A stretch of 64,000 nucleotides of DNA from Alphaproteobacteria bacterium (GCA_965261615.1 OZ253461.1:57046-121045), one strand, 5' to 3'; shown: positions 14,592 to 57,848, numbered from the stretch's first letter. Numbers and translations are program-made. Notes: generated by a model from the sequence alone, not told the origin.

Positions 14592-14619
14592 TCCCCCTTA
14601 TAAAGCTAACGCAACCGCC

Positions 14620-15292: not shown

Positions 15293-15328
15293 CAAAATCT
15301 CCTTATGTCTTTAAAAACCAAATACACT

Positions 15329-15727: not shown

Positions 15728-15765
15728 AACTATCTCCACTCTCATTAACTGCCCGCAATGCCACG

Positions 15766-19967: not shown

Positions 19968-20013
19968 TGATAAAAACATAAATTCTGTAACGATAAAAAC
20001 ATAAATTCTGTAA
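19968..20013. repeat. 2 x 23-bp direct tandem repeat (gataaaaacataaattctgtaac) upstream of the first family-A gene
   Basis: 19968-19990 and 19991-20013 are identical apart from the last base. Confidence 0.7.
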
Positions 20014-20045
20014 TTCTAAAGGTTTCTGTGATATATTAAGTAACG

Positions 20046-20927
20046 ATGAATTTTATCCTTATTTTCACTCTATGCATATCAACCTACTCGATTGGCGCTA
20101 GTTCTCACGCAACCACTTCTATTTGGAATGAGTGGAGCGTGGAAGAGCTCGCCTACTTTTTGCAATTCAACAGTGCTATTGTAGAGAGTTGTTCAACCGC
20201 CTTGCAGTATAACTATAAAAGCACTCACGAGACAAGAATCAAGACAGCTCTAAGTCACTTACACCAGCAATACACCGAAGCAGTCGTATCTTGTGCTGAA
20301 GCATTTTATGACGCTTTATACCCCCAGGAGCACGCTAAGGCAAGTGACACAGAGCCTCTCAGCTATCAATCACTGCCCTCCTTCAGGAAAAGTGCGCTCT
20401 TCCAGAACGACAAGTTCCACCCCGAATTAGCCCGTTTAATAAAAAAGCATGCTAGCAAAGACGGCCCAACCTGGAACACCGACCTCCCCAGTGACTATTT
20501 TCCCTTCGCAATCCTCTCTGAAAATAGTTTTGGTAGCATTACACACATCACAATCCCACTTTATATTGCAAAAAAGGGCAGCCTTCAACAAACACACATA
20601 CACAAACATGACGCAGAGGTCTTGATCCCCACAGACAGCACATTAGCCTTAAGCAAACACGCACTACTGACCATAGAAACCGGAGCCATATTTATATTTG
20701 CAAAAATCGCCATTTCCCCTTTAACTAAAGCCCTGTCTCAGAAGCTATCTTTTACCGCATACGAAACAAAAAGATCGCCCACATCACCCTTAGAAGCACG
20801 TCCGCGTAGTCAACAGATAGAGCTCTGTCTCGCACAGCTCTATCAGCATCGCCCAAAGTCTTCTCCAAGCGCAACACCTGACCTTATAAGACCGGAGCCA
20901 CCCACAGCTACACTTATAAAATTTTAA
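20046..20927 (+). CDS. Family-A secreted paralog 1 (293 aa)
   Basis: Signal peptide MNFILIFTLCISTYSIGASSHA. Conserved blocks SCAEAFYDAL, LFQNDKFHPELARLIKKH, IPLYI, HIHKHDAEVLIPT, GAIFIFAKI, SFTAYETK, and a C-terminus IRPEPPTATLIKF. Confidence 0.7.
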   Translation: MNFILIFTLCISTYSIGASSHATTSIWNEWSVEELAYFLQFNSAIVESCSTALQYNYKSTHETRIKTALSHLHQQYTEAVVSCAEAFYDALYPQEHAKASDTEPLSYQSLPSFRKSALFQNDKFHPELARLIKKHASKDGPTWNTDLPSDYFPFAILSENSFGSITHITIPLYIAKKGSLQQTHIHKHDAEVLIPTDSTLALSKHALLTIETGAIFIFAKIAISPLTKALSQKLSFTAYETKRSPTSPLEARPRSQQIELCLAQLYQHRPKSSPSATPDLIRPEPPTATLIKF

Positions 20928-21084
20928 TAGATAATTTGGAAGGAAGCTACCCACCCTGTATACCCCCCAGATAAGGCCCCTACTGACAAGCCTTTTAGGT
21001 TTGAAAGCTTGCGCACACCGCCGGATATTCAGAGGCAGCGATAAAATAAGTTCCTTAACAGAGCTTTCTGTGATAAACTGCGTA

Positions 21085-22050
21085 ATGATGAATTTTACCC
21101 TTATTTTTACTCTATGCATATCAACCTACTCAATTGGCGCTAGTTCTCACACAACCACTTCTGTTTGGGATGGATGGGGCATAACAGAACTCGCAACCTT
21201 TTTGCGATGCAACAATCCTTGTCTCAAGTGTTTTTCAGCCGCCTTACAGTATAACTACAACAGTAAGCACGAAGACAATATCAAAGAGGCCCTAGGGCAC
21301 GTACACCGGCAGATCACCGAGGCGATAGAATCTTGCGCTAAAGCATTCTACAATGCTTTACGCCACCTCCCGGCCCCAAATACGGGAACCGCCTCTACTG
21401 AACACACCGCATTACTCTCCCGTCAACCATTGTCCGCCCATCAGTCATTGCCTGACCTCGAAGCAAGAGAGCTCTTCAAAAGTGGCATGATCCACCCAGA
21501 TTTAGATCGTTTAATAAAACAATATGCTAAAATACAGCCTTCTTGCTGGAACTCACGCCTCGACAACTTAACAAAATACTTTGAGTGCATAAAGTTCGAG
21601 CGAAGTAATGCTGAAAACATTTTACACATATCGCTTCCACTTTATATAGTAGACACGAACGACCATCAGTTAACACAAACACACATAAGCAAACGTGACG
21701 CAAACACCTTAATCCCCACAAACAGCACATTAGTTTTTAACTCAGACGCACTGCATGCCGCAAACACCGGAGCTATATTTGTATATGCAAAAATTACCGT
21801 TGACTCTCTATTGAGACTCTTGGGTAAGAAACTATCTTTTATCGCATATGAGACAAAAGCATCGCCGACATCACCTCTAAAAGCAAGACCAGAAGACGCA
21901 AAGTTTGCCCAAAGGATACAGGAAGAGTGCGAATACCTAACCCAACTCAGCACCCCCCCAAAGCACTCCCTCAAGGAAGCACCAGAGCAAGCATCGAACA
22001 CCACCAGGCAGGAGCCACCAACAGATACACTGATAGCCATTGACTCTTAG
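21085..22050 (+). CDS. Family-A secreted paralog 2
   Basis: MMNFTLIFTLCISTYSIGASSHT... with SCAKAFYNAL, LFKSGMIHPDLDRLIKQ, LPLYI, THISKRDANTLIPT, GAIFVYAKI, SFIAYETK, and a C-terminus TRQEPPTDTLIAIDS. Confidence 0.7.
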   Translation: MMNFTLIFTLCISTYSIGASSHTTTSVWDGWGITELATFLRCNNPCLKCFSAALQYNYNSKHEDNIKEALGHVHRQITEAIESCAKAFYNALRHLPAPNTGTASTEHTALLSRQPLSAHQSLPDLEARELFKSGMIHPDLDRLIKQYAKIQPSCWNSRLDNLTKYFECIKFERSNAENILHISLPLYIVDTNDHQLTQTHISKRDANTLIPTNSTLVFNSDALHAANTGAIFVYAKITVDSLLRLLGKKLSFIAYETKASPTSPLKARPEDAKFAQRIQEECEYLTQLSTPPKHSLKEAPEQASNTTRQEPPTDTLIAIDS

Positions 22051-22185
22051 ACAGGTTTCCCCCATACACCTCGTCCTGCAAGGGACGGCCTGTTCTCCAT
22101 GCGACATCTCGGGCATCACAACAAACCGCATATCCCAAAACACATATAAACTTGACTTTCTGTGCGTTTAAAGTATAATAAGGTT

Positions 22186-23151
22186 ATGATGAAATTTATG
22201 TTTATTGTTACACTACTCATTTCTACTTGCTCTGTCGCAGCTAGTATAGAGCCCCCCTCGTCAAAGTGGGAAGGGTGGGACCTACCAAATCTAGCTACAT
22301 TTTTAAAAACATTCGCAACTCCCGTTACGGCTCTTTCGCACGCCTTGGAGCATCCCAGTTTAGAGGCCTCCACTTCAGAGCAAGAGGGATGGGGTTTAGT
22401 CAATCTAACTACGAGTTTAAGACAATACGCACCTCCCATTAATTATCTGTTGGACTCACTGGGTTGCCCCAATCAGTCTAAGCACTCGAAAAACATAAAA
22501 GAAGCACTCACAGCTCAACTCCAGTGCACCACCCAGTATGTAGAATCCTGCGCCAAAGCATTCTATGCTTTATACCTCCAAACACAGTATAAAAACTCCT
22601 CTAATGAAACAACACCATTACTTACCGGTCAACCATTGATAGCCTTAGATGAGAGTGAACTCTTCAAAAATGCTGAGCTTCACCCAACACTCTCCAATTT
22701 AATTGAAGAGTACGCATGCCCAACGTTTACTGACGTCAAGCCACACCCCGCCCAATTAGGAGACCCCTTTCCTTGCGTAAGATACTGTAGCGATGCAAAG
22801 GCTCAAACCGCAAGCATCGGAGTCCCTCTGTATATATTAGAAAAACACATACTCTATCTACAAAAAACCCACCTAGATATACAAACGGCAGATGCCTTGA
22901 TTCCCACAAGCAGCCCTCCCGCAACTATCGAGAGCGCGCTCTGCTCAGTATACTCCGGTGCCGTATTTATATATGCAGTTGTCCCCATTGCGCCCCGCTC
23001 TTCCATATCGTTTATCGCATACGAAACACAACCTCATCCTGAATCACCTCTACATGAAATCTCTGAAAACCACACAGAATTCAGAAAAGCAATAGAGCGC
23101 TGTGTACAGTCCCAGCATCAGATTTATGTATCTCAATTGAACCACCAATAG
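22186..23151 (+). CDS. Family-A secreted paralog 3 (divergent)
   Basis: MMKFMFIVTLLISTCSVAAS... with SCAKAFYALY, LFKNAELHPTLSNLIEEY, VPLYI, GAVFIYAV, SFIAYETQ. Confidence 0.65.
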   Translation: MMKFMFIVTLLISTCSVAASIEPPSSKWEGWDLPNLATFLKTFATPVTALSHALEHPSLEASTSEQEGWGLVNLTTSLRQYAPPINYLLDSLGCPNQSKHSKNIKEALTAQLQCTTQYVESCAKAFYALYLQTQYKNSSNETTPLLTGQPLIALDESELFKNAELHPTLSNLIEEYACPTFTDVKPHPAQLGDPFPCVRYCSDAKAQTASIGVPLYILEKHILYLQKTHLDIQTADALIPTSSPPATIESALCSVYSGAVFIYAVVPIAPRSSISFIAYETQPHPESPLHEISENHTEFRKAIERCVQSQHQIYVSQLNHQ

Positions 23152-23347
23152 TTATACTTATCGGACTCTAATTGAATAGTCTGGGGCGTTTCCCCCCGTT
23201 TAATGGTGGGTACGCCCTAGATCAGGCTCCCACTGCCAAGCCTTTTTGATTTGAAAGCTTGCGCATGCTACCGAAAGGATGAGCAAATACAGCAAAAATA
23301 TAAACTAAGTAGGGGGCTAGCATTTTTTGTGATATAACTACTGTACG

Positions 23348-24187
23348 ATGAAATTTATACTTATATTTACACTATTCATATCAGGCTACTCTGTCGCAGC
23401 TAGTTCAGACGCATACTCTTCAGTGTGGACAGGATGGGGCGTCGCAGATCTCGCAACCTTTTTAAAATACAACAGTGGTTGTGTAAACAGTTTGTCAGTC
23501 GCCTTACAACATAAATATAACAGTGATCATGAATCAAACATCAAGGAAGCTCTAACGCACTTACACCAGCAATACACCGATGCAGTAGTGTCTTGCGCTA
23601 AAGCATTTTATGACTCTTTATTCCTCCAAGAGAAGACTACACTCAGCTACCAACCACTACCTTCCTTCAAGAAAAATGATCTTTTTAAAAACGACAAATT
23701 CCACCCGGACTTAGAGCGTTTAATAAAAAAACACAGCACAAAGAGTCCAGTGTGGAACCCTCGCCTCAACGAATTACAAGACTACTACCACCGATTAAGG
23801 GTCTATCGAAATACTTTGCGCGAGGTGACACACATCGAGATTCCACTTTATATAGAAAGCAAGAGCAACCATCAGTTAACGCACAGACACATAAGCAAAC
23901 GTGACGCAAGTGCCTTGAACCCGACATCAAGAACATTAGCTTTTACAAAAGATGCACAGCTTACCGCACACAACGGGGCTACATTTATATTTGCAAGAAT
24001 CGCCGTCCACCCTATGAGTTTTTCTCTGCGGTTTAAACGCCTTTCATTTACCGCATACGAAACACAATCTCAGCCTGAATCACCCCTAAAGGCAAGCCCA
24101 GAAGACATAGGGTTTTGCAAACTAGTCGCACAAGAGTGCGAAGCACTAGCGAAGCACAGCAAAACCACAAGTCGAATCTACAGATAG
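23348..24187 (+). CDS. Family-A secreted paralog 4
   Basis: MKFILIFTLFISGYSVAASSDA... with SCAKAFYDSL, LFKNDKFHPDLERLIKKH, IPLYI, RHISKRDASAL, GATFIFARI, SFTAYETQ. Confidence 0.7.
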   Translation: MKFILIFTLFISGYSVAASSDAYSSVWTGWGVADLATFLKYNSGCVNSLSVALQHKYNSDHESNIKEALTHLHQQYTDAVVSCAKAFYDSLFLQEKTTLSYQPLPSFKKNDLFKNDKFHPDLERLIKKHSTKSPVWNPRLNELQDYYHRLRVYRNTLREVTHIEIPLYIESKSNHQLTHRHISKRDASALNPTSRTLAFTKDAQLTAHNGATFIFARIAVHPMSFSLRFKRLSFTAYETQSQPESPLKASPEDIGFCKLVAQECEALAKHSKTTSRIYR

Positions 24188-24364
24188 GCACTTATAGGCA
24201 TTTAATTGGATAATTTGGGACATTTTCCCCCCGTTTAGTGGTGGGTACGCCCTAGATCAGGCTCCCATTGCCAAGCCTTTTAGCTTTGAAAGCTTCATAG
24301 GATGACAAGCACATCAAATACATTATGTGGACTTTTAGAGTGTTCTATGCTATAAGTTGTTACT

Positions 24365-25243
24365 ATGAAGCTGATCCTTATATTGACACTATTTATATCT
24401 ACCTATTCTATCGGCGCTAGTTCACACGCAGCCACTTCAGTTTGGAGTGGGTGGAACATAGAAGAGCTCGCCTCCTTTTTACAAAGCAAACAGGCTGTAC
24501 TAAAGAGTTGTTCAGCCGCCTTGCAGTATAACTATGAAAGTGATCACGGGCCAAACATCAAGGAAGCCCTAAGGCACTTACACAGGCAATACACCGAAGC
24601 CGTCGTATCTTGCGCTAAAGCATTTTATACTGCATGCACCCAAGAACAGGAGGGCAAATCTTCCACCACTCACAGCACGTCGTTACTCCCCCGCAAGTCA
24701 TTACCACGCTTAGAGGAAAAAGAACTCTTCAAAAATGGCAAGTTCCATCCCGCCTTAGCCCGCTTAATACAGGCACATGATATCCAAGAACACGAGTCTT
24801 GGAACGGGCGCCTCGACCACTTAACTGACCATTTCTCAGCCATGTCTTTCATTACAGATGGTTTTGACGACATTACGCACATCTGTATTCCACTTTACAT
24901 AATAGACAAGAGCAGCCACCGGTTAACGCAAACGCATATAAGCAAAAGTGACGCAAACATCTTGCTCTCCATAAAAAGCCCATTAGCCTTTAACAAAGAA
25001 GCGCTGCTTACCGCACACACCGGTGCCGTATTTATATATGCACAAATCGCCGTTAACTTTTGGCATAGAACCCTGTGTAAGCGCCTGTCGTTTATCGCAT
25101 ACGAAACACAACCTCATCCTGAATCACCTCTACAGGAAATCTCTGAAGACGACACAAATCGTCGCCAAGAAATAGAGAAAGAAGTCCAACATCTAAGAAA
25201 GATCAGAGACGCCTCAGAGCCACCCACAGATGCACTTAATTAA
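24365..25243 (+). CDS. Family-A secreted paralog 5
   Basis: MKLILILTLFISTYSIGASSHA... with SCAKAFYTAC, LFKNGKFHPALARLIQAH, IPLYI, THISKSDANIL, GAVFIYAQI, SFIAYETQ. Confidence 0.7.
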   Translation: MKLILILTLFISTYSIGASSHAATSVWSGWNIEELASFLQSKQAVLKSCSAALQYNYESDHGPNIKEALRHLHRQYTEAVVSCAKAFYTACTQEQEGKSSTTHSTSLLPRKSLPRLEEKELFKNGKFHPALARLIQAHDIQEHESWNGRLDHLTDHFSAMSFITDGFDDITHICIPLYIIDKSSHRLTQTHISKSDANILLSIKSPLAFNKEALLTAHTGAVFIYAQIAVNFWHRTLCKRLSFIAYETQPHPESPLQEISEDDTNRRQEIEKEVQHLRKIRDASEPPTDALN

Positions 25244-25284
25244 CTTCAGTTAGATTAAAATTTTCTGTGATATAATCTCACACG

Positions 25285-26235
25285 ATGAAATTTATACTCA
25301 TATTTACACTCTTCCTCTCAACTTATTCTATCGGTGCTAGTTCACATGCAGACGATTCTGTTTGGGAGGAATGGAGTGTAACAGAACTCGCCAATTTTTT
25401 GAGGGACAAAAGCAGTATGCTGAACTGCTTTTCAGTGGCCTTACAACGTAGCTATGCAAATGATCACGAGGATAATATCAAGCAAGCTCTGACACACCTG
25501 CATCAGAAACATACCCAAGCGTTAGAGTCGTGTGCTGGAGCGTTCTACCGTACTTTACTCCTCCAAAATCCAAATACGACAACAAACTCTTCTGCACACT
25601 CAACATTACTCCCCCGCAAACCACTGCCGCTCTTAGACGAAAGTGAGCTCTTCAAAAACGGTAAATTTCACCCCGATTTCGCTCGCTTAGTAAAAAAACA
25701 TTGCAGCAGAGAGCGCTCTACCTACAACACACGCCTTATCCACGAACAAGACTACCTGCCCTTCATTGCCTGCATCCGCAATATTTATGGCGAAATTATA
25801 TACATGGAAATCCCTCTTTATATAATAAACAAGAGCAGCCATCAATTCACACACACTCACATAAGCAAACGTAACGCAAAAACTTTAATCCCCAAAGAGG
25901 GCACACCGTCTTTTCTAAAAAGCGCTCTATCCACAACACACACCGGGGCCATATTTATATTTGCAAAAATCTCCTTTCGCTCTCTCTTTAACACTCTATC
26001 TTTTAGCGCATATGAAACAAAGGCATCACCTACTGCACGCCTCAAAGCACGACCAAAAGACAAGGAATTTAGCAAAACAATAGAGCAAGGGCTCGACTAT
26101 CTAGCAAAGATGTTAAAAAAAGCAGAAACATCGAGCCCTCAGAAACACCCAGGGCCTTCTCCCAGCACCACCTCTAAGAAAACACCTGACATCACAAGAC
26201 AAGAGCCACCAACAGGTGTACTTATAAACTTTTAG
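25285..26235 (+). CDS. Family-A secreted paralog 6
   Basis: MKFILIFTLFLSTYSIGASSHA... with SCAGAFYRTL, LFKNGKFHPDFARLVKKH, IPLYI, THISKRNAKTL, GAIFIFAKI, SFSAYETK, and a C-terminus ITRQEPPTGVLINF. Confidence 0.7.
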   Translation: MKFILIFTLFLSTYSIGASSHADDSVWEEWSVTELANFLRDKSSMLNCFSVALQRSYANDHEDNIKQALTHLHQKHTQALESCAGAFYRTLLLQNPNTTTNSSAHSTLLPRKPLPLLDESELFKNGKFHPDFARLVKKHCSRERSTYNTRLIHEQDYLPFIACIRNIYGEIIYMEIPLYIINKSSHQFTHTHISKRNAKTLIPKEGTPSFLKSALSTTHTGAIFIFAKISFRSLFNTLSFSAYETKASPTARLKARPKDKEFSKTIEQGLDYLAKMLKKAETSSPQKHPGPSPSTTSKKTPDITRQEPPTGVLINF

Positions 26236-26271
26236 TTGCCCCCCCCTTTTTCTCTGTGATACACTTATGCG

Positions 26272-27201
26272 ATGAAATTTATACTTATATTTACCCTATT
26301 CATATCAACCTATTCTATAGCCGCCAGTTCACACGCAAACGATTCTATTTGGGAGGGGTGGAGCACAACAGAAATCGCTTCCCTTTTAAGACGCACCATG
26401 CCTTGTGTAGACGCTGTTTCATCCGCCTTGCGGTATAACTATAAAAGTGATCATGAGACAAGCATCAAGAAAGCTCTAGAACACCTCCACCAGCAAAACA
26501 CCAAAATCGTAGAATCTTGTGCTCAAGCGCTCTACGAAACTTTACTTCTCCAAGAGCAAGCAAAGGCAAGCAAAACAACACCTCCCAGCAGCTATCAACC
26601 ACTGCCATCCTTCAAGAAAAGCGATCTCTTCAAAGCGGGCAAACTCCACCCCAGCTTATCTCGTTTCATAAAACAGCATGGGAACAAAGACACACATAAA
26701 TGGAACCCAAAACTCAACCACTTAAGAAACTATTTTAAGGTAGGGTTCACTCCAAACGCTAATGGCGAAATTATAGAAGTGGAACTCCCTCTTTATATAA
26801 TAAAAAAGAACGACTGTCAGTTAACGCAAACGCACATAAGCAAACGTGACGCAAACACCTTAATCTCCACAGACAGCACATTAGCCTTTGTCAAAGACGC
26901 TCTACAAACCACAGAAACAGGAGCCATATTTATATATGCTAAAATCACCCTTCAGCCTCTATTGAGACTGCTGAATGGAACCTGCTCTTTTTCCGCATAT
27001 GAAACAAAACCATCTCCCCTATCACGCCTAAAAGCACGCCCAAAAGACATACAATTTAGCAAAGAAATAGAGCAAGCGTGCGCAGATCTAGCAAAGATCA
27101 GCAAAAAAGAAATAAGTCGGCCCCCCAGCAGAACACCTGAGCCCACGACTGACGTCACAAGGCCAGAGCTACCAACCGGTATACTTATAACTTTTTGTTA
27201 G
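26272..27201 (+). CDS. Family-A secreted paralog 7
   Basis: MKFILIFTLFISTYSIAASSHA... with SCAQALYETL, LFKAGKLHPSLSRFIKQH, LPLYI, THISKRDANTL, GAIFIYAKI, SFSAYETK, and a C-terminus TRPELPTGILITFC. Confidence 0.7.
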   Translation: MKFILIFTLFISTYSIAASSHANDSIWEGWSTTEIASLLRRTMPCVDAVSSALRYNYKSDHETSIKKALEHLHQQNTKIVESCAQALYETLLLQEQAKASKTTPPSSYQPLPSFKKSDLFKAGKLHPSLSRFIKQHGNKDTHKWNPKLNHLRNYFKVGFTPNANGEIIEVELPLYIIKKNDCQLTQTHISKRDANTLISTDSTLAFVKDALQTTETGAIFIYAKITLQPLLRLLNGTCSFSAYETKPSPLSRLKARPKDIQFSKEIEQACADLAKISKKEISRPPSRTPEPTTDVTRPELPTGILITFC

Positions 27202-27230
27202 ATTTAAAATTTTCTGTGATACAGTACATC

Positions 27231-28160
27231 ATGAAATTTATACTTATATTTACCCTATTCATATCAACCTATTCTATCGGCGCTAGTTCACATGCAGCTA
27301 CTTCAGCCTGGGAAGGGTGGAGCGTAACAGAACTCGCAACATTTTTACAATACAACAGTCGTCGTATAAACGGCCTTTCAACTGCCTTACAATATAAATT
27401 TAACAGCACTCATGCGACAAACATCAAGGAAGCTCTAGCGAACTTGCACCGGCAATACACCGATGCGGTAGTGTCTTGCGCTAAAGCATTTTATGATGCT
27501 TTATTCCTCCAAGAAAAGACTGTACTCAGCTATCAACCACTACCTGCCTTCAAGAAAGATGATCTTTTTAAAAACGACAAATTCCACCCGGACTTAGAGC
27601 GTTTAATAAAAAAACACAGCACACAGAGCCCAATGTGGAACCCTTGCCTCGACGAATTACAAGACTACTTCAACCACGTAGGGGTACTCCATAATGACTC
27701 TCACGAGATAACATACATCGAAATTCCACTTTATATAGAAAGCAAGAGCAGCCATCAGCTAACACAAAAACATATAAGCAAACGTGACGTAAATGCCTTG
27801 AGCCCTACAGAACGCACATTAGCTTTTAACAAAGACGCTCTACGAACCACAGACACCGGCGCCGTATTTATATATGCAAAAATCGCGGTCCACCCTATGA
27901 AAATTCTGTTTAAGACCCTGTCTTTTATAGCATATGAAACAAAGCCATCTCCCACATCACCCCTAAAGGCACGCCCAAAAGACATGGCATTTTGCCAAAA
28001 AATGGAGAAAAAGTGCGCAGAGCTAGCAAAGCTCAGCAAAAAAATAAATGAGTCCGCCTCCCAGCAACAACCCGATCCTTCCTCAAAAAGCACAACCCCT
28101 GAGGAAACGTCTGACATCACAAGGCAGGAGCCACCAACAGGTATACTTGTAAACTTTTAG
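27231..28160 (+). CDS. Family-A secreted paralog 8
   Basis: MKFILIFTLFISTYSIGASSHA... with SCAKAFYDAL, LFKNDKFHPDLERLIKKH, IPLYI, KHISKRDVNAL, GAVFIYAKI, SFIAYETK, and a C-terminus ...KINESASQQQPDPSS...SDITRQEPPTGILVNF. Confidence 0.7.
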   Translation: MKFILIFTLFISTYSIGASSHAATSAWEGWSVTELATFLQYNSRRINGLSTALQYKFNSTHATNIKEALANLHRQYTDAVVSCAKAFYDALFLQEKTVLSYQPLPAFKKDDLFKNDKFHPDLERLIKKHSTQSPMWNPCLDELQDYFNHVGVLHNDSHEITYIEIPLYIESKSSHQLTQKHISKRDVNALSPTERTLAFNKDALRTTDTGAVFIYAKIAVHPMKILFKTLSFIAYETKPSPTSPLKARPKDMAFCQKMEKKCAELAKLSKKINESASQQQPDPSSKSTTPEETSDITRQEPPTGILVNF

Positions 28161-29300
28161 TTGGATAATCTGGGGCGTTATCCACCTTGTAATTAACAAG
28201 GTGGAGGCACCTTATATATGACCACACACTTACGGTTTTCATTTCACCCACTGCAAATGCAGAGACCCAACTATAGCCAAAACATAAACTAACTTGTCTT
28301 ACGGCCTGATCTATGATAATATCTCTCCATGATGCAACTTATACTTATATTTACCCTCTTCATATCAACCTATTCTGTGGCCGCCAGTTCACAGGAAGAC
28401 GGTTCTATTTGGGAGGGATGGAACACAGCAGATCTTGCCTCCTTTTTAAGACGCGTCGTGCCTTGTGTAGACGCTATTTCATCCGCCTTGCAGTATAACT
28501 ATAACAATAAGCATGAGCAACACATCAAGAAAGCTCTAACGCACCTCCACCAGCAAAACACCAAAGCCGTAGAGTCTTGTGCTCATGCGCTCTACGATGC
28601 TTTATTCCTCCAAGAGCAAGCCAAGGAAGGTGCAACAACACCTCTCAGCAGCTATCAACAACTGCCCTCCTTCAAGAAAAGTGAGCTCTTCAAAGCGGGC
28701 AAACTCCACCCCAGATTATCTCGTTTCATAAAACAGCATGGGAGCAACAAAAGACATCTGGGCAACCCACAACTCGACAGCTTAACGGACTATTTTTGTG
28801 GGGCATATTTCACTCCAAACGCCGCTGGCGAAATTATAGAAGTGGAAATCCCTCTTTATATAATAAAAAAGAACGACTGTCCATTAACGCAAACGCACAT
28901 AAGCACACACGACGCAAACACCTTAACCCCAGGCACATTAGTCTGGAACCAAGACGCTCTACTAACAACAGAAACCGGAGCCATATTTATATATGCAAAA
29001 ATCAACCTTCCACCTCTGTTGAGACTCTTTAGTGGAACCTGCTCTTTTGCTGCATATGAAACAAAACCATCTCCCACACCACGCCTAAAAGCAAGCCCAG
29101 AAGGCATAAAATTCAGCCAGAAAATAGAGCAAAAGTGCGCATATCTAGCAACGCTCAGCATAGAACAAAGATCAGCAGCACAAAGATCAATGAGTCGGCC
29201 CCCCAGCCACAACCAGACCCTTCCTCAAGAAGCATAACTCCTGAGCAAACGTCTGACATCACAAGGCAGGAGCCACCAACAGGTATACTTATAGAATTTT
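28161..29300. repeat. Copy 1 of a ~1.14 kb near-identical tandem duplication (intergenic element plus a family-A gene)
   Basis: 28161-29300 is ~99% identical to 29301-~30440. The two begin ttggataatctggggcgttatccaccttgtaattaacaaggtgg and ttgaataatctggggcgttatccacctttaattaacaaggtgg respectively. Confidence 0.8.
28329..29237 (+). CDS. Family-A secreted paralog 9, C-terminus frameshifted relative to its duplicate
   Basis: MMQLILIFTLFISTYSVAASSQ... The protein is identical to the first module of 29470..32319 until ~29160. There a ~16-nt deletion inside the 84-bp linker repeat shifts the frame. The ORF then ends ...SMSRPPSHNQTLPQEA*, while the canonical family C-terminus (SDITRQEPPTGILIEF*) lies in another frame and ends at ~29301. 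Confidence 0.6.
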   Translation: MMQLILIFTLFISTYSVAASSQEDGSIWEGWNTADLASFLRRVVPCVDAISSALQYNYNNKHEQHIKKALTHLHQQNTKAVESCAHALYDALFLQEQAKEGATTPLSSYQQLPSFKKSELFKAGKLHPRLSRFIKQHGSNKRHLGNPQLDSLTDYFCGAYFTPNAAGEIIEVEIPLYIIKKNDCPLTQTHISTHDANTLTPGTLVWNQDALLTTETGAIFIYAKINLPPLLRLFSGTCSFAAYETKPSPTPRLKASPEGIKFSQKIEQKCAYLATLSIEQRSAAQRSMSRPPSHNQTLPQEA

Positions 29301-30440
29301 AGTTGAATAATCTGGGGCGTTATCCACCTTTAATTAACAAGGTGGAGACACCTTATATATGACCACACACTTACGGTTTTCATTTCACCCACTGCAAATG
29401 CAGAGACCCAACTATAGCCAAAACATAAACTAACTTGTCTTACGGCCTGATCTATGATAAAATCTCCCCATGATGCAACTTATACTTATATTTACCCTCT
29501 TCATATCAACCTATTCTGTGGCCGCCAGTTCACAGGAAGACGGTTCTATTTGGGAGGGATGGAACACAGCAGATCTTGCCTCCTTTTTAAGACGCGTCGT
29601 GCCTTGTGTAGACGCTATTTCATCCGCCTTGCAGTATAACTATAACAATAAGCATGAGCAACACATCAAGAAAGCTCTAACGCACCTCCACCAGCAAAAC
29701 GCCAAAGCCGTAGAGTCTTGTGCTCATGCGCTCTACGATGCTTTATTCCTCCAAGAGCAAGCCAAGGAAGGTGCAACAACACCTCTCAGCAGCTATCAAC
29801 AACTGCCCTCCTTCAAGAAAAGTGAGCTCTTCAAAGCGGGCAAACTCCACCCCAGATTATCTCGTTTCATAAAACAGCATGGGAGCAACAAAAGACATCT
29901 GGGCAACCCACAACTCGACAGCTTAACGGACTATTTTTGTGGGGCATATTTCACTCCAAACGCCGCTGGCGAAATTATAGAAGTGGAAATCCCTCTTTAT
30001 ATAATAAAAAAGAACGACTGTCCATTAACGCAAACGCACATAAGCACACACGACGCAAACACCTTAACCCCAGGCACATTAGTCTGGAACCAAGACGCTC
30101 TACTAACAACAGAAACCGGAGCCATATTTATATATGCAAAAATCAACCTTCCACCTCTGTTGAGACTCTTTAGTGGAACCTGCTCTTTTGCTGCATATGA
30201 AACAAAACCATCTCCCACACCACGCCTAAAAGCAAGCTCAGAAGGCATAAAATTCAGCCAGAAAATAGAGCAAAATTGCGCATATCTAGCAACGCTCAGC
30301 ACAAAGATAAATGAGTCAGCTCCCCAGCAACAACCAGACCCTTCAAGCATAGAGCAAGAGTGTGCAGACCAAAAGATCAGCAGCACAAAGATCAATGAGT
30401 CGGCCCCCCAGCCACAACCAGACTCTTCTATTTGGGCGGG
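29301..30440. repeat. Copy 2 of the ~1.14 kb tandem duplication
   Basis: See copy 1 at 28161..29300. A third, partial copy follows at ~30428-31230 (tctatttgggcgggatggaacacagcagatcttgcc... matches 28403 onward). Confidence 0.8.
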
Positions 30441-32319
30441 ATGGAACACAGCAGATCTTGCCTCCTTTTTAAGACGCGTCGTGCCTTGTGTAGACGCTAT
30501 TTCATCCGCCTTGCAGTATAACTATAACAATAAGCATGAGCAACACATCAAGAAAGCTCTAACGCACCTCCACCAGCAAAACGCCAAAGCCGTAGAGTCT
30601 TGTGCTCATGCGCTCTACGATGCTTTATTCCTCCAAGATAAGGAAGGTGCAGCAACACCTCTCAGCGGCCATCAAACACTGCTATCCCTCAAGAAAAGTG
30701 AGCTCTTCAAAGCGGGCAAACTCCACCCCAGATTATCTCGTTTCATAAAACAGCATGGGAGCAACAAAAGACATCTGGGCAACCCACAACTCGACAGCTT
30801 AACGGACTATTTTTGTGGGGCATATTTCACTCCAAACGCCGCTGGCGAAATTATAGAAGTGGAAATCCCTCTTTATATAATAAAAAAGAACGACTGTCCA
30901 TTAACGCAAACGCACATAAGCACACACGACGCAAACACCTTAACCCCAGGCACATTAGTCTGGAACCAAGACGCTCTACTAACAACAGAAACCGGAGCCA
31001 TATTTATATATGCAAAAATCAACCTTCCACCTCTGTTGAGACTCTTTAGTGGAACCTGCTCTTTTGCTGCATATGAAACAAAACCATCTCCCACACCACG
31101 CCTAAAAGCAAGCCCAGAAGGCATAAAATTCAGCCAGAAAATAGAGCAAAATTGCGCATATCTAGCAACGCTCAGCACAAAGATAAATGAGTCAGCTCCC
31201 CAGCAACAACCAGACCCTTCAAGCATAGAGCAAGAGTGTGCAGACCAAAAGATCAGCAGCACAAAGATCAATGAGTCGGCCCCCCAGCCACAACCAGACT
31301 CTTCAAGCATAGAGCAAGAGTGTGCAGACCAAAAGATCAGTAGCACAAAGATAAATGAGTCGGCCCCCCAGCCACAACCAGACTCTTCAAGCATAGAGCA
31401 AGAGTGTGCAGACCAAAAGATCAGTAGCACAAAGATAAATGAGTCGGCCCCCCAGCAACAACCAGACCCTTCCTCAAGCACAGCCACCTCAGACTGGGAC
31501 GGGTGGAACATCGCAGACCTCGCCACCTTTTTACAGTGCCACCAACCAACTGCCGCCAACCTTGCAAGGGCATCTAAAAAAAGCTATACAAGTGATCACT
31601 GGAATTATATCGCATACAACCTGACCGCAATACACCAGAGGTTCTCTCGAGCGATATCCTCCTGTGCCCAAGCATTCTATGATGCTTTACAAGACCAATC
31701 TGCGCCACTGCCTGTTTTAAAGCACGATGAACTGTACAAAAATGGTAAGCTTCACCCCGCTTTATCCCGTTTAGTAAAAAAACATGCCAACCGAAGGTAT
31801 AAGATTGGCAATTCACGCACCCGCCGACCGGGAGATCTATTCTCAGTCCTGTATTCCAATCGCAATGGTTGGGGTCTAACCTCACACATATGCATCCCCC
31901 TTTATATATATAAAAGCGATAGCCTTCAATTAACAAGCCCCCACATTAGCAAGTATCAGGAAGCAACCTTACTACCCCCCAGAGGCCCTATTGCTTCAGA
32001 GGCCAATGCACTACTCACGGCTCACGATAGCGCCCTTTTTATATATGCAGAAATCCCTCTTCTCCCCCTATTGGGACCTGTGCGGCTTGTCGCATATCAA
32101 ACAAAACAACAGCCAGGATCACGCTTAACAAACAATGCTGACCACCAAAAATTCACACAACGTATAGAACAGTCTATCCGCGAAATCCCTCAAACGTCCG
32201 CTGCCTCTCATTCAGATCTATTGCCACACCCACTAGCAGCACAAACGCGCACACTGCTGTCTCCACACCAACTAGCAGCAAACGCTATCCGCGCCACATA
32301 TACGCCTGGACAAGTCTGA
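29470..32319 (+). CDS. Tri-modular family-A fusion protein (949 aa): three family-A modules joined by 28-aa repeat linkers
   Basis: Module 1 is nearly identical to 28329..29237. Module 2 (from IWAGWNTADLASFL, no signal peptide) is nearly identical again. 84-bp (28-aa) tandem linker repeats SIEQECADQKISSTKINESAPQPQPDSS follow. Module 3 is divergent (SDWDGWNIADLATFL...SCAQAFYDAL...LYKNGKLHPALSRLVKKH...IPLYIY...PHISKYQEATL...ALFIYAEI...VAYQTK). Confidence 0.6.
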   Translation: MMQLILIFTLFISTYSVAASSQEDGSIWEGWNTADLASFLRRVVPCVDAISSALQYNYNNKHEQHIKKALTHLHQQNAKAVESCAHALYDALFLQEQAKEGATTPLSSYQQLPSFKKSELFKAGKLHPRLSRFIKQHGSNKRHLGNPQLDSLTDYFCGAYFTPNAAGEIIEVEIPLYIIKKNDCPLTQTHISTHDANTLTPGTLVWNQDALLTTETGAIFIYAKINLPPLLRLFSGTCSFAAYETKPSPTPRLKASSEGIKFSQKIEQNCAYLATLSTKINESAPQQQPDPSSIEQECADQKISSTKINESAPQPQPDSSIWAGWNTADLASFLRRVVPCVDAISSALQYNYNNKHEQHIKKALTHLHQQNAKAVESCAHALYDALFLQDKEGAATPLSGHQTLLSLKKSELFKAGKLHPRLSRFIKQHGSNKRHLGNPQLDSLTDYFCGAYFTPNAAGEIIEVEIPLYIIKKNDCPLTQTHISTHDANTLTPGTLVWNQDALLTTETGAIFIYAKINLPPLLRLFSGTCSFAAYETKPSPTPRLKASPEGIKFSQKIEQNCAYLATLSTKINESAPQQQPDPSSIEQECADQKISSTKINESAPQPQPDSSSIEQECADQKISSTKINESAPQPQPDSSSIEQECADQKISSTKINESAPQQQPDPSSSTATSDWDGWNIADLATFLQCHQPTAANLARASKKSYTSDHWNYIAYNLTAIHQRFSRAISSCAQAFYDALQDQSAPLPVLKHDELYKNGKLHPALSRLVKKHANRRYKIGNSRTRRPGDLFSVLYSNRNGWGLTSHICIPLYIYKSDSLQLTSPHISKYQEATLLPPRGPIASEANALLTAHDSALFIYAEIPLLPLLGPVRLVAYQTKQQPGSRLTNNADHQKFTQRIEQSIREIPQTSAASHSDLLPHPLAAQTRTLLSPHQLAANAIRATYTPGQV
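30301..30425. repeat. 84-bp coding tandem repeat, ~1.5 copies (linker between modules 1 and 2)
   Basis: This DNA encodes KINESAPQQQPDPSSIEQECADQKISSTKINESAPQPQPDSS. Confidence 0.7.
31178..31478. repeat. 84-bp coding tandem repeat, ~3.5 copies (linker between modules 2 and 3)
   Basis: Repeated agcatagagcaagagtgtgcagaccaaaagatcag(c/t)agcacaaagat(c/a)aatgagtcggccccccagccacaaccagactcttca, with units starting near 31221, 31305 and 31389. Confidence 0.75.
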
Positions 32320-32438: not shown

Positions 32439-33140
32439 TTATTCTGCAGGAACGCCATTCTCCCACCAGTTCTTATATTTGCTTTTCTCATCCTTTCCCA
32501 TATGCCGAAGTATCTTCTGAGCGGTGACTTTACCACCCCGACTAGCATATGGCTCAAGAGTCTCTTGCGCATACTGAAGTCGCCACAAACCAAGCTCACA
32601 CTTCTTAGCATACTCTTCACCAGCTGCACAAACACCAGGATCCAGCGGTTCCCCTTTAGTAGCAGCCTGAGCCCCCTTTATAACATCATCATAATCACAC
32701 AAAAAAGAATGCTCTTTTGCTAGCATCAACCGAAAATCTGCCAAATCTTTTGCTAGTACACCGCCAAACCCAGTCTTTAATTGACTTAACAAGCTAAAAG
32801 CCTGTAGGCGGCCTAAGTTTCCTTCCTCATAGATTTTCTGGGCAGAGTCTTTGTCTATATCCTTGTCAAGCACGCTCACATATAGCCGTCTTAAGCTAAC
32901 GGCACTTTCTGTTACAGAACGAGCTGACTCCCATTTTTCACATAACTTATTATAGGCATCAACTACTTCCTTATCGGCCCACCTTAGGTTGATTTCCAGG
33001 CTTTTAAGAACACCATACACTTCCGCAGTCGTGCTCACTTTAAACGCCCCCGCACCAGCGGGGCGCGCCTGATCAGACGCAAGAGCGCTCAAAACACACA
33101 AAAAAACACTGATCCTCCCCCACATAAACTCTGCTAACAT
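32439..33140 (-). CDS. Hypothetical secreted protein (233 aa)
   Basis: Hydrophobic N-terminus (ISVFLCVLSALASDQA). No motifs recognised. Confidence 0.45.
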   Translation of the reverse strand: MLAEFMWGRISVFLCVLSALASDQARPAGAGAFKVSTTAEVYGVLKSLEINLRWADKEVVDAYNKLCEKWESARSVTESAVSLRRLYVSVLDKDIDKDSAQKIYEEGNLGRLQAFSLLSQLKTGFGGVLAKDLADFRLMLAKEHSFLCDYDDVIKGAQAATKGEPLDPGVCAAGEEYAKKCELGLWRLQYAQETLEPYASRGGKVTAQKILRHMGKDEKSKYKNWWENGVPAE

Positions 33141-33214
33141 ATCATAGGTTGGGGAGGCAGCGCGATACTCAGAAGTTATCAGTCTGCTTTAAGGCCGGCA
33201 CTGCTCTTTCAATC

Positions 33215-53771: not shown

Positions 53772-54878
53772 ATGTTCCTGAAATTCTTGCTTACTGTATT
53801 TCATATTAGCGCAACCAGCCTTATCGCGGCAAACGGTACATCAGATTACGAGTTAACTATACAACCACCTCATTTATGCTCTCAATGCGCGCAGCCAGCG
53901 CTCTCACAGGAGTTCCATAATACTCTAGCTTTCTCCAAACAGCCACTCAAAGTACAAGCTGCCCATCTCTTACTGTACTCCTACCAAGCAGGCATTTTTC
54001 TTCTGCTTGCACAACAGTCACGCACAGATAGACACTGGAAAAACATTCAAAAAGCTCTTGGCTCACTGTATCTCAATGAGCTCGAACTACTCCATGAGCT
54101 TAGCCACATCACTTACGAGCGCTTTTACAGGCGACTATGCCCCGACTCCTTAAAAAACGCCCCTGTTTACAGCGAGCATAACCTTCGCCCAGACTTTTTC
54201 GAGTTTCTAACAAAACATGCCACACACCACTCAGTGAGCCTCTGTGTAAATATTCGTAACGCTCAAAGAATAATTCCTCTTTGGCGCCCTCGCACCTCAA
54301 TATTGGGAAACATCAATTCACTGTGTATTTGTCTGTACACAATAGATGCTGTTTCCGCACAACCCATCATACACTCTGCCCCAGCGACATCAGCACAAGT
54401 AGATCCCGAATCAATCCCCGAAGCAAGCACGCCTGCCACTTTAGCCAGCCTCTTCAGCGCCATAGTTACGCCACCTCCTCACAGCGGGACACACTACACC
54501 CTAGTCGAGGTACCTCTAACCACAAACAGCCCTTTGAACTTTTTTATCATAAAAGAAGGAGAACCTTGCTCATTGCCACGTTGCTTCGCTGACATGCCAG
54601 ACCGCATACGCAACCTGCGTTCCGTATTACAAAAAGACTGGTCTCTAAGCTCACAAAATAGCCACTGTTTTCGCAAACAAATCGACGCAGACGCACCCTT
54701 TACAACCCCTATTAAAACCACAAGTTTTTTTGAAACACCACACACCAACCTCATGCACCAAGAACCCTCTGCCTCCCTTCCTCCCTTTCCGTCTCAAGCG
54801 GTAGTTACTACCACCCTCCCCCAAACTATCTCAGCTAAAGAGTCACAATCTCTACAGCCAGGAGAATTCTGGATTTAA
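53772..54878 (+). CDS. Family-B secreted paralog 1 (368 aa)
   Basis: Signal MFLKFLLTVFHISATSLIAA. It shares QPLK.QA.HLL.Y...A......Q....D.HW..I..AL.SL...E...L..L...TY and RPDF..FL..HA with 56820..57848. Confidence 0.6.
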   Translation: MFLKFLLTVFHISATSLIAANGTSDYELTIQPPHLCSQCAQPALSQEFHNTLAFSKQPLKVQAAHLLLYSYQAGIFLLLAQQSRTDRHWKNIQKALGSLYLNELELLHELSHITYERFYRRLCPDSLKNAPVYSEHNLRPDFFEFLTKHATHHSVSLCVNIRNAQRIIPLWRPRTSILGNINSLCICLYTIDAVSAQPIIHSAPATSAQVDPESIPEASTPATLASLFSAIVTPPPHSGTHYTLVEVPLTTNSPLNFFIIKEGEPCSLPRCFADMPDRIRNLRSVLQKDWSLSSQNSHCFRKQIDADAPFTTPIKTTSFFETPHTNLMHQEPSASLPPFPSQAVVTTTLPQTISAKESQSLQPGEFWI

Positions 54879-54884
54879 TGCACC

Positions 54885-55712
54885 ATGACTATAATCGCCT
54901 TAGCACTCTCACTGCTCTCATCTATCTCCGCTGCCACAACATCAATCTGGGAGGGGAGCAGCATTGAAGCCCTCGCCGCCTGCTTGAGATTCCACCCACA
55001 GTCTGTGGCTAATCTTTCAGCCGCCCTACAGCTCAAACCTACAAATGCTCACGAAATAAACATCAAGAGCAGCCTAACAGCAATACACCAACAATACACA
55101 AAAATGCTCACAAGCTGCGCTCAAGCATTTTATGACGCTTTAGACGCCAATGAGCAAAAGCGGCAAGCTACTCCCACGACCCCGCTGCTCACAAAAAAAG
55201 TAATCCCTGCTTTAGAGTCCAGTGAGCTCTTCAAAAACGACAAAGTTCATCCAGCCTTATCTCCTTTTGTCCAAAAGTATGCAAAAAAAACCGCACCGAC
55301 CCTAAAGACCCCATGGGACCCAAAAGAAATTTTTGATCTCGTATTCTTCGATCGCACTATCTTTAGGCAGCTTTCTCACATAGAAGTGCCCCTATATATA
55401 TTAGATACAAGCGAACATACACTACCCCGCACTATGAGCATGCAGGACGCAAACAACTTAATCCCTCCATCAAGCCCACTAGCGTCTAACGAACTGTGTG
55501 CTCTAAGCGCAGCTCCAACACTTATATACGCTAAAATTCCAGTTTTGTCCCAATCTGAAGCCATAACATTTGTCACCTATGAAATAAACCCACAAACCAC
55601 ATCACGCCTACAGGAACGATCTAAATACACAGCGCGCAGAAAGGAGATTGCACAAACTTGTCAAGGATACGCCAGGTTAGAAAAGCTCTCTAAGGCGACA
55701 CCCCTTCAGTAA
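54885..55712 (+). CDS. Family-A secreted paralog 11 (divergent; no conserved C-terminus)
   Basis: SIWEGSSIEALAACL, SCAQAFYDAL, LFKNDKVHPALSPFVQKY, VPLYI, TLIYAKI, FVTYE. Confidence 0.6.
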   Translation: MTIIALALSLLSSISAATTSIWEGSSIEALAACLRFHPQSVANLSAALQLKPTNAHEINIKSSLTAIHQQYTKMLTSCAQAFYDALDANEQKRQATPTTPLLTKKVIPALESSELFKNDKVHPALSPFVQKYAKKTAPTLKTPWDPKEIFDLVFFDRTIFRQLSHIEVPLYILDTSEHTLPRTMSMQDANNLIPPSSPLASNELCALSAAPTLIYAKIPVLSQSEAITFVTYEINPQTTSRLQERSKYTARRKEIAQTCQGYARLEKLSKATPLQ

Positions 55713-55813
55713 AATGCACCTCTGGCTAATGGTCCTTAAAACTCATCAATTTTGCAGAAAGATAGCCGTATATTAAAAGTTTGACAATGGACACAGGTGT
55801 GATATAATTTTAT

Positions 55814-56629
55814 ATGGTTATGTTTGTATTTACATTCACGCTACTGACATCTATCAGCTCTATCGCTGCAACTTTAGTTTGGTCAGGATGGAGCGCTTCA
55901 GAAATGGCCTCCTTTTTAAGCAATCAACAAGCTGTTATCTCTCATTTGTCAGCGGCGATGCAGCATGACTACAAAGGGGTCCACCGGGCCAACCTCCACC
56001 AAACCCTAACTGAACTACACCAGAAGTACACCACACCAACGACATCTTGTGCCAAAGCGTTCTATACCACTGTATACCGCCAAGAGCAGGCCATCGCTAA
56101 CCTTTACGCCGAGGAGCACACGCCTCTGCTCCTCCCCAATAAGCTCCCACATATAGCACCCTGCGACCTCTTCAAAAATGATAAGTTTCACCCAATTTTA
56201 GATCATTTAATAAAAGAGCATCCCCTAACACAACGTTTCCTAAATCCACGCCTCTACAGCCTCATAGGGCCCTTCAGCATCACAATCACCAATAGGCAAG
56301 ATGGGCGAGACTCACATATATCAGTTCCCCTTTACATATTCAGCAAAGAACACAATCGTTTGGAAAGCCCCTACATTAGCGCGCGTGATGCCGAAACCTT
56401 AATCCCCTCAACAGGCCCCCGATCCTCTGAGGTAAACGCACAAAAAACTGTACATTCTGGTGCTATATTTATATACGCTAGAGTCCCCATTGCAAACTTA
56501 TCTGAAGAAGTGACATTTGTCGCATATGAAACAAAAGCTCAACCTGATTCACTCTTAAACGGAAACACAAAAGCCGCACAAGCGATAGAAGCCGCTGTAG
56601 AAAATTTGCCCCACCCTCCCCAAAGCTAG
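55814..56629 (+). CDS. Family-A secreted paralog 12 (divergent)
   Basis: LVWSGWSASEMASFL, SCAKAFYTTV, LFKNDKFHPILDHLIKEH, VPLYI, YISARDAETLIPS, GAIFIYARV, TFVAYETK. Confidence 0.6.
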   Translation: MVMFVFTFTLLTSISSIAATLVWSGWSASEMASFLSNQQAVISHLSAAMQHDYKGVHRANLHQTLTELHQKYTTPTTSCAKAFYTTVYRQEQAIANLYAEEHTPLLLPNKLPHIAPCDLFKNDKFHPILDHLIKEHPLTQRFLNPRLYSLIGPFSITITNRQDGRDSHISVPLYIFSKEHNRLESPYISARDAETLIPSTGPRSSEVNAQKTVHSGAIFIYARVPIANLSEEVTFVAYETKAQPDSLLNGNTKAAQAIEAAVENLPHPPQS

Positions 56630-56819
56630 CCCCTCTCTCAAGCAACAGTTGCCAACATAACACCCTCAACCCCAAGAGGTTTCTCGAAAAAGGGTTTTCA
56701 CCATCATGCACAACCGTCTCTTTTTAATATTGAGCGCCGAACACCTGTCAAGACTTATCACGCATTAGCAAAAGTGATATAACCCTTGATTTTAATTAAA
56801 AAATTATATATAATTTCCT

Positions 56820-57848
56820 ATGTTTATTATATTCGTTATTGCAGCAATAAGCCTTACTTCACTTTGTGCAGCCAGCGCTCCACACGACTTTACTCCCCAT
56901 ACGTTTGCGCAGCTACCTCTTAAAACTCAAGCCTACCACCTCTTGAGCTACGCGCAGGAGGCACAGCGACTTGACCAGCTTGCCGCACACCATCATGCAG
57001 ACCCCCACTGGCCCCTAATCCACCAGGCCCTGTGCTCATTAGCTAAAAACGAAATGCTTGCTCTTCAACAGCTAGGTACCGTCACTTATAAAATGCATTA
57101 TGAGAGCAAGTGCCCAGAGGCACACAAGCTTCAGACCTGCATTAACGACTATCATATACGCCCAGACTTTGCTGCATTCTTGAAATCACACGCCGCAAAT
57201 GACGGGCCCACTCCACGAGCAAAAATTGGTGACGCCCAAGGCTTTATGCCCGTTACAGCATACCAATTCAATTGGTTTGGGTCCTTCAAGTCTTTCTGTT
57301 TTTGCCTCTACCACCTAAGCAGCACAAGTGGTAAAGAAATCATAAACAAAATACCCCCAGCCACAACAGCCATCAAAGGAACTGACATCCCCACCTCAAG
57401 CACTCCCGCGACCTTACTTCACTTTTTTTCCACAGAGGTTAATCCGCCATCCCACAAACGACCTTATTATATACTAGCCGAAGTCCCATTCAACGCCAGC
57501 AGCCCTATAAACTACTTTATCGTAAAAGCCCACGCACCAGCCACACTACCAAGCGCTTTTGCTAAAATGCCTCAGGACATACACCTCATGCATACGCTCA
57601 TTAAGAAAAAAGGGGAAGTTTCAGACAAAAAAAAGGGAGTTCAGATACGCTACCCAGCAAAACCTAAACCTAGCTCAATCCACCAGACTACGTTACATTC
57701 AAACGCTTTAGCTATCCCTGCAACAGCTGAACCGAGCGAAAAACAAAAAACTCACCCCAAAAGATTCCCTCCGGAAAAAATACACACTTACCTGATCACC
57801 CCCAAGGATAACAGTGATCAAGATTCGCTCACGGCCACTTTCGTGTAG
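56820..57848 (+). CDS. Family-B secreted paralog 2 (342 aa)
   Basis: Signal MFIIFVIAAISLTSLCAASA. Paralogous to 53772..54878. Confidence 0.6.
   Translation: MFIIFVIAAISLTSLCAASAPHDFTPHTFAQLPLKTQAYHLLSYAQEAQRLDQLAAHHHADPHWPLIHQALCSLAKNEMLALQQLGTVTYKMHYESKCPEAHKLQTCINDYHIRPDFAAFLKSHAANDGPTPRAKIGDAQGFMPVTAYQFNWFGSFKSFCFCLYHLSSTSGKEIINKIPPATTAIKGTDIPTSSTPATLLHFFSTEVNPPSHKRPYYILAEVPFNASSPINYFIVKAHAPATLPSAFAKMPQDIHLMHTLIKKKGEVSDKKKGVQIRYPAKPKPSSIHQTTLHSNALAIPATAEPSEKQKTHPKRFPPEKIHTYLITPKDNSDQDSLTATFV

Follow-up and report, generated by a model that had tools for sequence, protein, structure and literature searches.

Near-identical copies, a three-module gene and a detached tail where an array of putative exported proteins ends in an alphaproteobacterium

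The question raised by positions 28161 to 32319 of a 64,000-nucleotide (nt) stretch of Alphaproteobacteria bacterium (GCA_965261615.1 OZ253461.1:57046-121045; the whole stretch is called the window here) is how two nearly identical copies of a gene, an open reading frame (ORF) of 949 amino acids (aa) that carries the same protein module three times, and a copy whose conserved end is out of frame came to lie side by side, and whether such a locus varies in the population, decays or was put together wrongly during assembly. The region lies at the 3' end of a plus-strand array in which ten genes, g1 to g10, with 12 modules follow one another head to tail (20046..32319); we delimited this array from the ORF list, the translations and a family hidden Markov model (HMM). 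Alignment A1 has 13 sequences and 33 invariant positions, and the family HMM matched ORFs of the window. A module of ~300 aa has a signal peptide, a three-helix bundle with a small beta-sheet and a Pro/Gln/Ser-rich linker, and in half of the array genes a conserved tail ending in TRQEPPTGILINF follows. None of the duplication, the fusion, the repeats and the frameshift is attributable to chance. The feature is real, and it is a new example of a familiar type of locus in an orphan family. The explanation that we consider probable is that 28.2-32.3 kb is the youngest part of the tandem array of a lineage-restricted, Sec-exported family, and that unequal crossing-over, slippage and gene conversion of the ordinary kind shaped it.

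Duplicated blocks and the three-module gene

The original prediction held 28161-29300 and 29301-30440 to be ~99% identical. Such identity was found in a core of 966 nt, 28190-29155 against 29331-30296, where there are only 6 mismatches (99.4%), but not over the full ranges. In a shift scan the long copies were in register at an offset of 1141 nt and not 1140, the opening ~30 nt of 28161-29300 were only ~90% identical to their counterpart, and the last ~145 nt (29156-29300 vs 30297-30440) were not colinear. Because the linkers of the two copies differ past 29155 and 30296, the global alignment of the two ranges gives only 92%. The partial third copy that had been proposed was recovered as well, in frame and lacking a signal peptide, with its bounds slightly corrected from 30428-31230 to 30412-31176, and 748 of 771 positions match 29530-30300 (97.0%). 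These three copies, namely g9 and modules 1 and 2 of g10, which we refer to as the X lineage, are 97-99% identical to one another, and other pairs are 51-80% identical.

The fusion gene g10 (29470..32319, +) encodes, in this order, a signal peptide, module 1, two linker units, module 2, four linker units and a divergent module 3. That the 949-aa ORF has three family modules, as was predicted, follows from three independent matches of the family HMM, at residues 5-310, 319-602 and 671-944. It is also publicly annotated, as a protein of 948 aa (P0007) that starts one Met later. Module 3 (31477..32319, +) is an old paralog with 34% aa identity to g8, more than one synonymous substitution per synonymous site (dS above 1), a different C-terminus and no tail; all 33 invariant residues of the family are present in it, as they are in modules 1 and 2.

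The 84-bp linker repeats noted earlier are likewise there. Tandem Repeats Finder reported 31173-31472 with a period of 84, 3.6 copies, a match of 95% and a score of 537, and when the units are aligned in register they begin at 30265 and 30349 after module 1 and at 31141, 31225, 31309 and 31393 after module 2. In the module-1 linker (30265..30426, +), unit 0 is the module's own C-terminal helix with the spacer PQQQPDPSS, and unit 1 is cut 6 nt short by the first fusion junction. The module-2 linker (31141..31476, +) has four units in register, each of 84 nt or 28 aa and of the form IEQ(N/E)CA...KINESAPQ(P/Q)QPD(P)SS, the first two of which (31141-31304) are 100% identical to 30265-30428. Unit 0, that is the last helix of the module and the spacer, reads IEQNCAYLATLSTKINESAPQQQPDPSS, and g8 has a single such segment, MEKKCAELAKLSKKINESASQQQPDPSS; the 28-aa unit is thus derived from the module's own last helix and is not foreign sequence. 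Units 1-3 of the module-2 linker show graded differences at a few sites and unit 2 is a hybrid of both its neighbours, which is the pattern expected from stepwise slippage or unequal exchange.

Each fusion keeps the reading frame and lies exactly at the boundary between the end of a linker unit and a mature N-terminus, with 3-9 nt of microhomology, and each eliminated precisely a tail with its stop codon, a spacer, a promoter and a signal peptide. The sequences that mark the two junctions are CCAGACTCTTCTATTTGGGCG and CCTTCCTCAAGCACAGCCACC. Junction 1 (30416..30437, +) passes from CCAGACTCTTC to TATTTGGGCG and connects a unit ending in DSS to the mature N-terminus DGS-IWEGW over the microhomology AGACnnTTC; the unit end AGACTCTTC (DSS) meets AGACGGTTC-TATTTGG (DGS-IW) with 7 of 9 nt matching, and just downstream there is a private substitution, a GCG codon that gives IWAGW. 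This junction could have originated by an 882-nt intragenic tandem duplication or by a deletion between two former genes, and the complete identity of 30265-30428 and 31141-31304 fits the duplication route. At junction 2 (31468..31490, +) the Ser-Ser codons that end a unit are joined to the residues after the end of a signal peptide (PDPSS followed by STATSDWDGW), and the partner site in paralogs is the position after the ASS of the signal peptide (ASS-HAATSVW). Since module 3 is divergent, the exact crossover point of junction 2 is an approximate placement.

The detached tail of g9 and the mosaic copies

The upstream near-identical copy, g9 (28329..29237, +; 302 aa), has an intact signal peptide and module (family HMM, E 5.9e-150), and its C-terminal tail is out of frame. 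Its linker remnant (29124..29227, +) is 104 nt long as compared with 168, and of the net deficit of 64 nt, 48 nt are an in-frame loss and the other 16 nt a further net loss. Hence the deletion of ~16 nt in the linker, to which the frameshift had been ascribed, does shift the frame but is only a part of what was lost. Because of this net loss an undamaged tail lies in another frame. The tail (29228..29302, +), which reads SRSITPEQTSDITRQEPPTGILIEF before its stop codon, is undecayed, is in the +2 frame with respect to the ORF of g9 and is ~90% identical to the tail of g8. Its end, SDITRQEPPTGILIEF and the stop, is intact but is read in the frame of position 29102. This displaced frame (29060-29299) is still recognised by the family HMM with an E value of 4.7e-6, so the claim that the conserved C-terminus is out of frame in this copy stands. 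Within the linker remnant there is a C6 tract (29199-29204), and a single additional C in it would restore the frame and give a g9 of 324 aa with its tail; a homopolymer miscall or rare slippage could therefore matter here. A C6 tract is present in every X-lineage linker unit (29199-29204, 30404-30409, 31280-31285, 31364-31369 and 31448-31453), and all five are of the same length. Canonical -1 ribosomal frameshifting in g9 was considered and rejected on inspection of the sequence, as CGG CCC CCC AGC is not X XXY YYZ in the zero frame.

When g8 and g9 were compared, the bodies were 55-75% identical, and from ~28045 on, that is in the linker, the tail and the 3' flank, identity was 83-100%. Between g7 and g9 the situation is reversed, with bodies 80-95% and tails 48-68% identical. 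This switch in identity between body and tail means that the X lineage is a mosaic with its breakpoint in the linker. A smaller mosaic is seen in module 2, where a divergent patch (30639..30690, +) in the length-variable loop of the family has 8 substitutions and a 6-nt deletion between otherwise identical flanks; clustering of substitutions to this degree has a P of about 1e-4. With g7 as the outgroup of g9, module 1 and module 2, two flanking sites unite modules 1 and 2, a 61-nt patch unites g9 and module 1, and module 2 retains two ancestral states inside the patch. Such incompatible site patterns between the copies indicate putative gene conversion, and no donor for the module-2 patch was found in the 64-kb window. 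The ratio of non-synonymous to synonymous substitution rates (dN/dS) is 0.35-0.75 among the older paralogs and 0.36-0.59 for module 3 against its paralogs.

Formation of the locus and rival explanations

The anatomy of the locus, its breakpoints and its mosaicism are read directly from the DNA, and from them we infer the mechanisms of recombination. The linker, which is the DNA segment best conserved between paralogs, would be the hot spot, as every rearrangement breakpoint is placed there. A gene lineage X would have arisen with a g7-like body and a g8-like tail; a whole-gene duplication of 1141 nt would have yielded g9 and g10; a duplication of 882 nt, or a fusion, would have made a linker unit run straight into a second mature module; and a fusion to a downstream divergent paralog would have added module 3. 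Finally, the 84-nt unit taken from the last helix of the module would have been amplified stepwise, and the 64-nt deletion in the linker of g9 would have detached its tail. The outcome would be two proteins, a secreted one of three modules with spacers of 28 aa and one of a single module without a tail, and both products are presumably made and exported. The array also holds older rearrangements of the same kind. In g3 (22186-23148) the N-terminal ~50 residues are internally duplicated, WEGWDLPNLATFL being followed by EGWGLVNLTTSL, and two HMM domains are found. The tail, in the form PPTGILINF and a stop, is disconnected in g3, g4 and g5 too (23060-23200, 24100-24240 and 25150-25290), by a frameshift in g3 (PPIVILIGL and a stop, out of frame), an in-frame TAG before ALIGI and the stop in g4, and a terminal frameshift in g5.

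Some observations weigh against this explanation. The recent differences among g9, module 1 and module 2 are 17 non-synonymous and 1 synonymous, and dN/dS is about 0.9-1.0 for g7 against the X lineage; these recent changes suit relaxed constraint equally as well as diversifying selection on an exposed loop, and the numbers are small. How many copies of the 1141-nt unit and of the 84-nt unit there are, and how single-nucleotide polymorphisms (SNPs) are phased where copies are perfectly identical over as much as 537 nt, could be choices made by the assembler. The order of the events is open to more than one reconstruction.

It is quite unlikely, in our judgement, that the locus is an artefact of assembly or sequencing in which near-identical repeats were collapsed, expanded or mis-phased and the frameshift of g9 is perhaps a homopolymer miscall. 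The stretches of perfect identity between copies, up to 408-537 nt long, would defeat short reads, and it takes only the one C in the tract of g9 to give the 324-aa protein with a tail. Yet the two long copies differ by 6 SNPs and in their linkers, which is not what an exact artificial duplication would look like, and the C6 tracts of the X lineage agree in length. A mis-join places a novel junction within long shared sequence, whereas at junctions 1 and 2 and at the g9 deletion the microhomology spans only 3-9 nt, next to private bases and unique k-mers, and these junctions must therefore exist in reads. The partners at junction 2 are moreover dissimilar to each other (34% identity for module 3), and both fusions keep the frame exactly at domain boundaries. 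The suggestion that a mis-joined assembly could have created the fusion and the frameshift is thus improbable for both junctions and for the deletion. Decay, in which redundant copies at the end of the array drift to pseudogenes in a reduced genome and neither the fusion nor the frameshift is more than a neutral accident that yields no functional product, appears to us rather improbable too. It would explain the dN/dS near 1 between g7 and the X lineage, the recent changes that are nearly all non-synonymous, the loss of the tail in 4 of 10 genes and the mostly degenerate state of a neighbouring array of six HtrA-like ORFs. Against it, the ORF of 949 codons is still open, all three of its modules keep 33 of 33 invariant residues, the promoter-like elements are conserved and module 3 has a dN/dS of 0.36-0.59 against its paralogs, and the rearrangements are in any case too recent to show decay either way.

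The original prediction saw in active unequal crossing-over or slipped-strand rearrangement a route to length or phase variation. The first half of this agrees with what we found, as the locus holds several very recent products of rearrangement, namely the gene duplication, the 882-nt duplication or fusion, the expansion of units, the linker deletion and the conversion-like sites, and as the 84-nt units are in frame, variation in length is plausible. Phase variation in the classical sense is not supported. Programmed variation, be it switching of the tail by slipped-strand mispairing at the C tract or the linker, or antigenic or length variation among cassettes, we regard as very unlikely, although in-frame 84-nt repeats stand in 2 and 4 copies, g9 is one C away from its in-frame state, there are signs of gene conversion and the proteins are secreted and evolve fast. 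In a contingency locus the frame is set by a homopolymer of about 8 nt or more or by a repeat of 2-7 nt; here the longest tract in g9 is C6, the repeat unit of 84 nt is a multiple of 3, and the frameshift is an irreversible net loss of 16 nt. The tails of g3, g4 and g5 were lost by different, fixed lesions, which looks like recurrent loss rather than switching. Cassette systems of the msp2/p44, vlsE and pilE type have one expression site and silent, truncated donor cassettes that lack a promoter, and here a start codon, a signal peptide and an extended -10-like element of its own are found in each of the ten genes. It is also unlikely that these exported proteins make up a new class that interacts with a host or the envelope and has an undescribed fold, whose module number and tail are actively diversified by linker-targeted recombination and in which the C tract and the 84-nt units are genuine switches in populations.

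The family, its expression and its relatives

Every family gene opens with MKFILIFTLFISTYSIGASS, an N-terminus that by inspection looks like a Sec signal peptide. The AlphaFold2 (AF2) model of a module has a mean predicted local distance difference test score (pLDDT) of 77 and a predicted template modelling score of 0.75, with residues 1-23 at pLDDT below 50, and in it residues 32-53, 62-97 and 249-277 form three long helices and 151-236 a small sheet, while the N-terminal end and, at the C-terminus, the linker and tail are disordered. A second family cluster in the window (53772..57848, +) has four members, of which 54885-55712 and 55814-56629 are clear and 53772-54878 and 56820-57848 remote. 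At least four further members (P0011, P0012, P0013 and P0016) are found elsewhere in the source genome, which at 1.47 Mb carries at least 20 modules. The tails end in a hydrophobic residue pattern, x-F, and C-termini of this type can be bound by PDZ proteases. On the minus strand at 38453-46303 there are six consecutive ORFs of 397-473 aa that form an apparent tandem HtrA/DegP-like array, mostly degenerate, with clear Trypsin_2 and PDZ matches only in 42254-43597 and a weak PDZ match in 40920-42266. A link between the family tails and these PDZ proteins would be pure speculation. Further small ORFs with signal-peptide-like N-termini and coiled-coil-like sequence, which do not match the family, lie on the minus strand at 14010-15745 and 32439-34102, and two of them, 32439-33140 and 33215-34102, both terminate in PAE. 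Long antisense ORFs, such as 30873-31559 on the minus strand, were judged to be spurious by-products of the repeats and the skewed composition.

In the 60 nt upstream of each family gene (20000-29470 and 53712-56820) we read -10-like elements, and all 14 genes have an extended one (TGATATAAT and variants, tgTGATATAAT) that ends 5-9 nt before the ATG. The family genes are without a Shine-Dalgarno sequence, while unrelated genes of the window (4036 and 48285) carry GGAGG. The short distance of the -10-like element from the ATG and the lack of a Shine-Dalgarno sequence together suggest leaderless or near-leaderless mRNAs, one per gene, and each family gene would have its own promoter. In the spacer upstream of g9 (28161..28328, +) the stop of g8 is followed by a hairpin and the ATG is closely preceded by an extended -10-like element, and the spacer is 97-100% identical to 29303-29469. 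That counterpart is the spacer of g10 (29303..29469, +), for which the scan entry is TTGTCT, 17 nt and TAAAAT with an upstream TG (TG-A-TAAAAT) at 29435-29463, ending 6 nt before the ATG. Overall, the promoter and terminator scans were at the level of shuffled sequence, and a terminator after the stop codon was rejected, the hairpin not being significant (z -1.6). A C8 tract (26239-26246) lies in the 36-nt spacer between g6 and g7, just upstream of the promoter-like element of g7.

The family is an orphan that is confined to one lineage. Searches of Pfam gave sub-threshold noise only, NCBIfam and PADLOC gave no match to the family, the PDB gave no sequence match at E<=1, and Foldseek of the AF2 model against the PDB gave none at E<=0.001. 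No relative was found when 185,579 species genomes were scanned with the family alignment or in a scan of Joint Genome Institute (JGI) metagenomes, and a megablast against plasmids had no match. An exhaustive profile search of 1.84 billion representatives returned just 10 matches, one of which, P0015, a repeat protein of 1991 aa, is spurious. Over 5.8 billion clustered proteins and these 1.84 billion representatives, all genuine matches come from the source genome of 1,465,401 bp or from two metagenome contigs. Both contigs, L001 (1-1042) and L082 (1-1990), are from ENA metagenome ERZ23496358, PANK22-1_SAMN12291685, and belong to a related organism. On the former is an ortholog of g2 with 86% DNA identity, and on the latter a tandem pair of distant family members, with a guanine-cytosine (GC) content of 44% and a GC skew of -0.245, as in the window. 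The window (1-64000) has 44% GC and a uniformly negative skew, very strong at -0.15 to -0.35 in every 2-kb segment and without a switch. Its tyrosyl-tRNA synthetase is 44-49% identical to those of metagenome-assembled genomes of Alphaproteobacteria, and scans of it for rRNA, tRNA and Rfam families had no match.

Several known systems resemble the locus. The OMP-1/P28/MAP1 genes of Ehrlichia and Anaplasma form tandem arrays of a dozen or more signal-peptide paralogs of ~280-300 aa with short spacers and individual promoters, and their products are beta-barrel porins of a defined Pfam family. The array described here likewise has head-to-tail signal-peptide paralogs of ~300 aa, and its X copies are far more alike than other pairs and have mosaic, incompatible sites, as is typical of arrays that evolve by unequal crossing-over and gene conversion, but its proteins are predicted to be a helical bundle with a small sheet and have no Pfam match. 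Mycoplasma Vlp/Vsa and the streptococcal alpha C protein are secreted or surface proteins with in-frame tandem repeats that change in length by slippage. In-frame repeats in a secreted protein are shared by g10; unlike in contingency loci, neither ORF nor promoter contains a homopolymer longer than C6 or a repeat of short units, and the frameshift is not driven by repeat number. In Ehrlichia ruminantium, Collins et al. in 2005 (PNAS 102:838, listed in PMC5040723) reportedly described genome-wide tandem repeats of variable copy number that vary between passages or strains. There too duplication and tandem-repeat turnover reshape coding regions in a small alphaproteobacterial genome, but organism and genes are different and what we have here is one sequence.

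A parallel in unit length is MSP1a of Anaplasma marginale, a surface adhesin with tandem repeats of 28-29 aa (PMC3299730), the number of which is used for strain typing (PMC3679145). Like MSP1a, g10 has in-frame, Ser/Gln-rich coding repeats of 28 aa or 84 nt, in 2 and 4 units, in a protein of a small-genome alphaproteobacterium that has a signal-peptide-like N-terminus. There is no sequence similarity, as the family has no match in Pfam or NCBIfam, and the repeats of MSP1a are N-terminal in a single-copy gene, whereas those of g10 are linkers between whole paralog modules that come from the last helix of the module. The resemblance to MSP1a, OMP-1/P28 and E. ruminantium is one of analogy, without homology.

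As the mechanism is the textbook one for tandem arrays, the general significance of the locus is modest. With its signal peptides, its fast evolution and its setting in a small genome, the family may act at the cell envelope or on a host, and an orphan family with at least 20 modules, no fold match and promoters of leaderless appearance is a reasonable candidate for host interaction in an alphaproteobacterial lineage with a small genome. In g10 the locus appears to catch a multi-domain secreted protein being born from tandem single-domain paralogs by way of two microhomology-mediated events.

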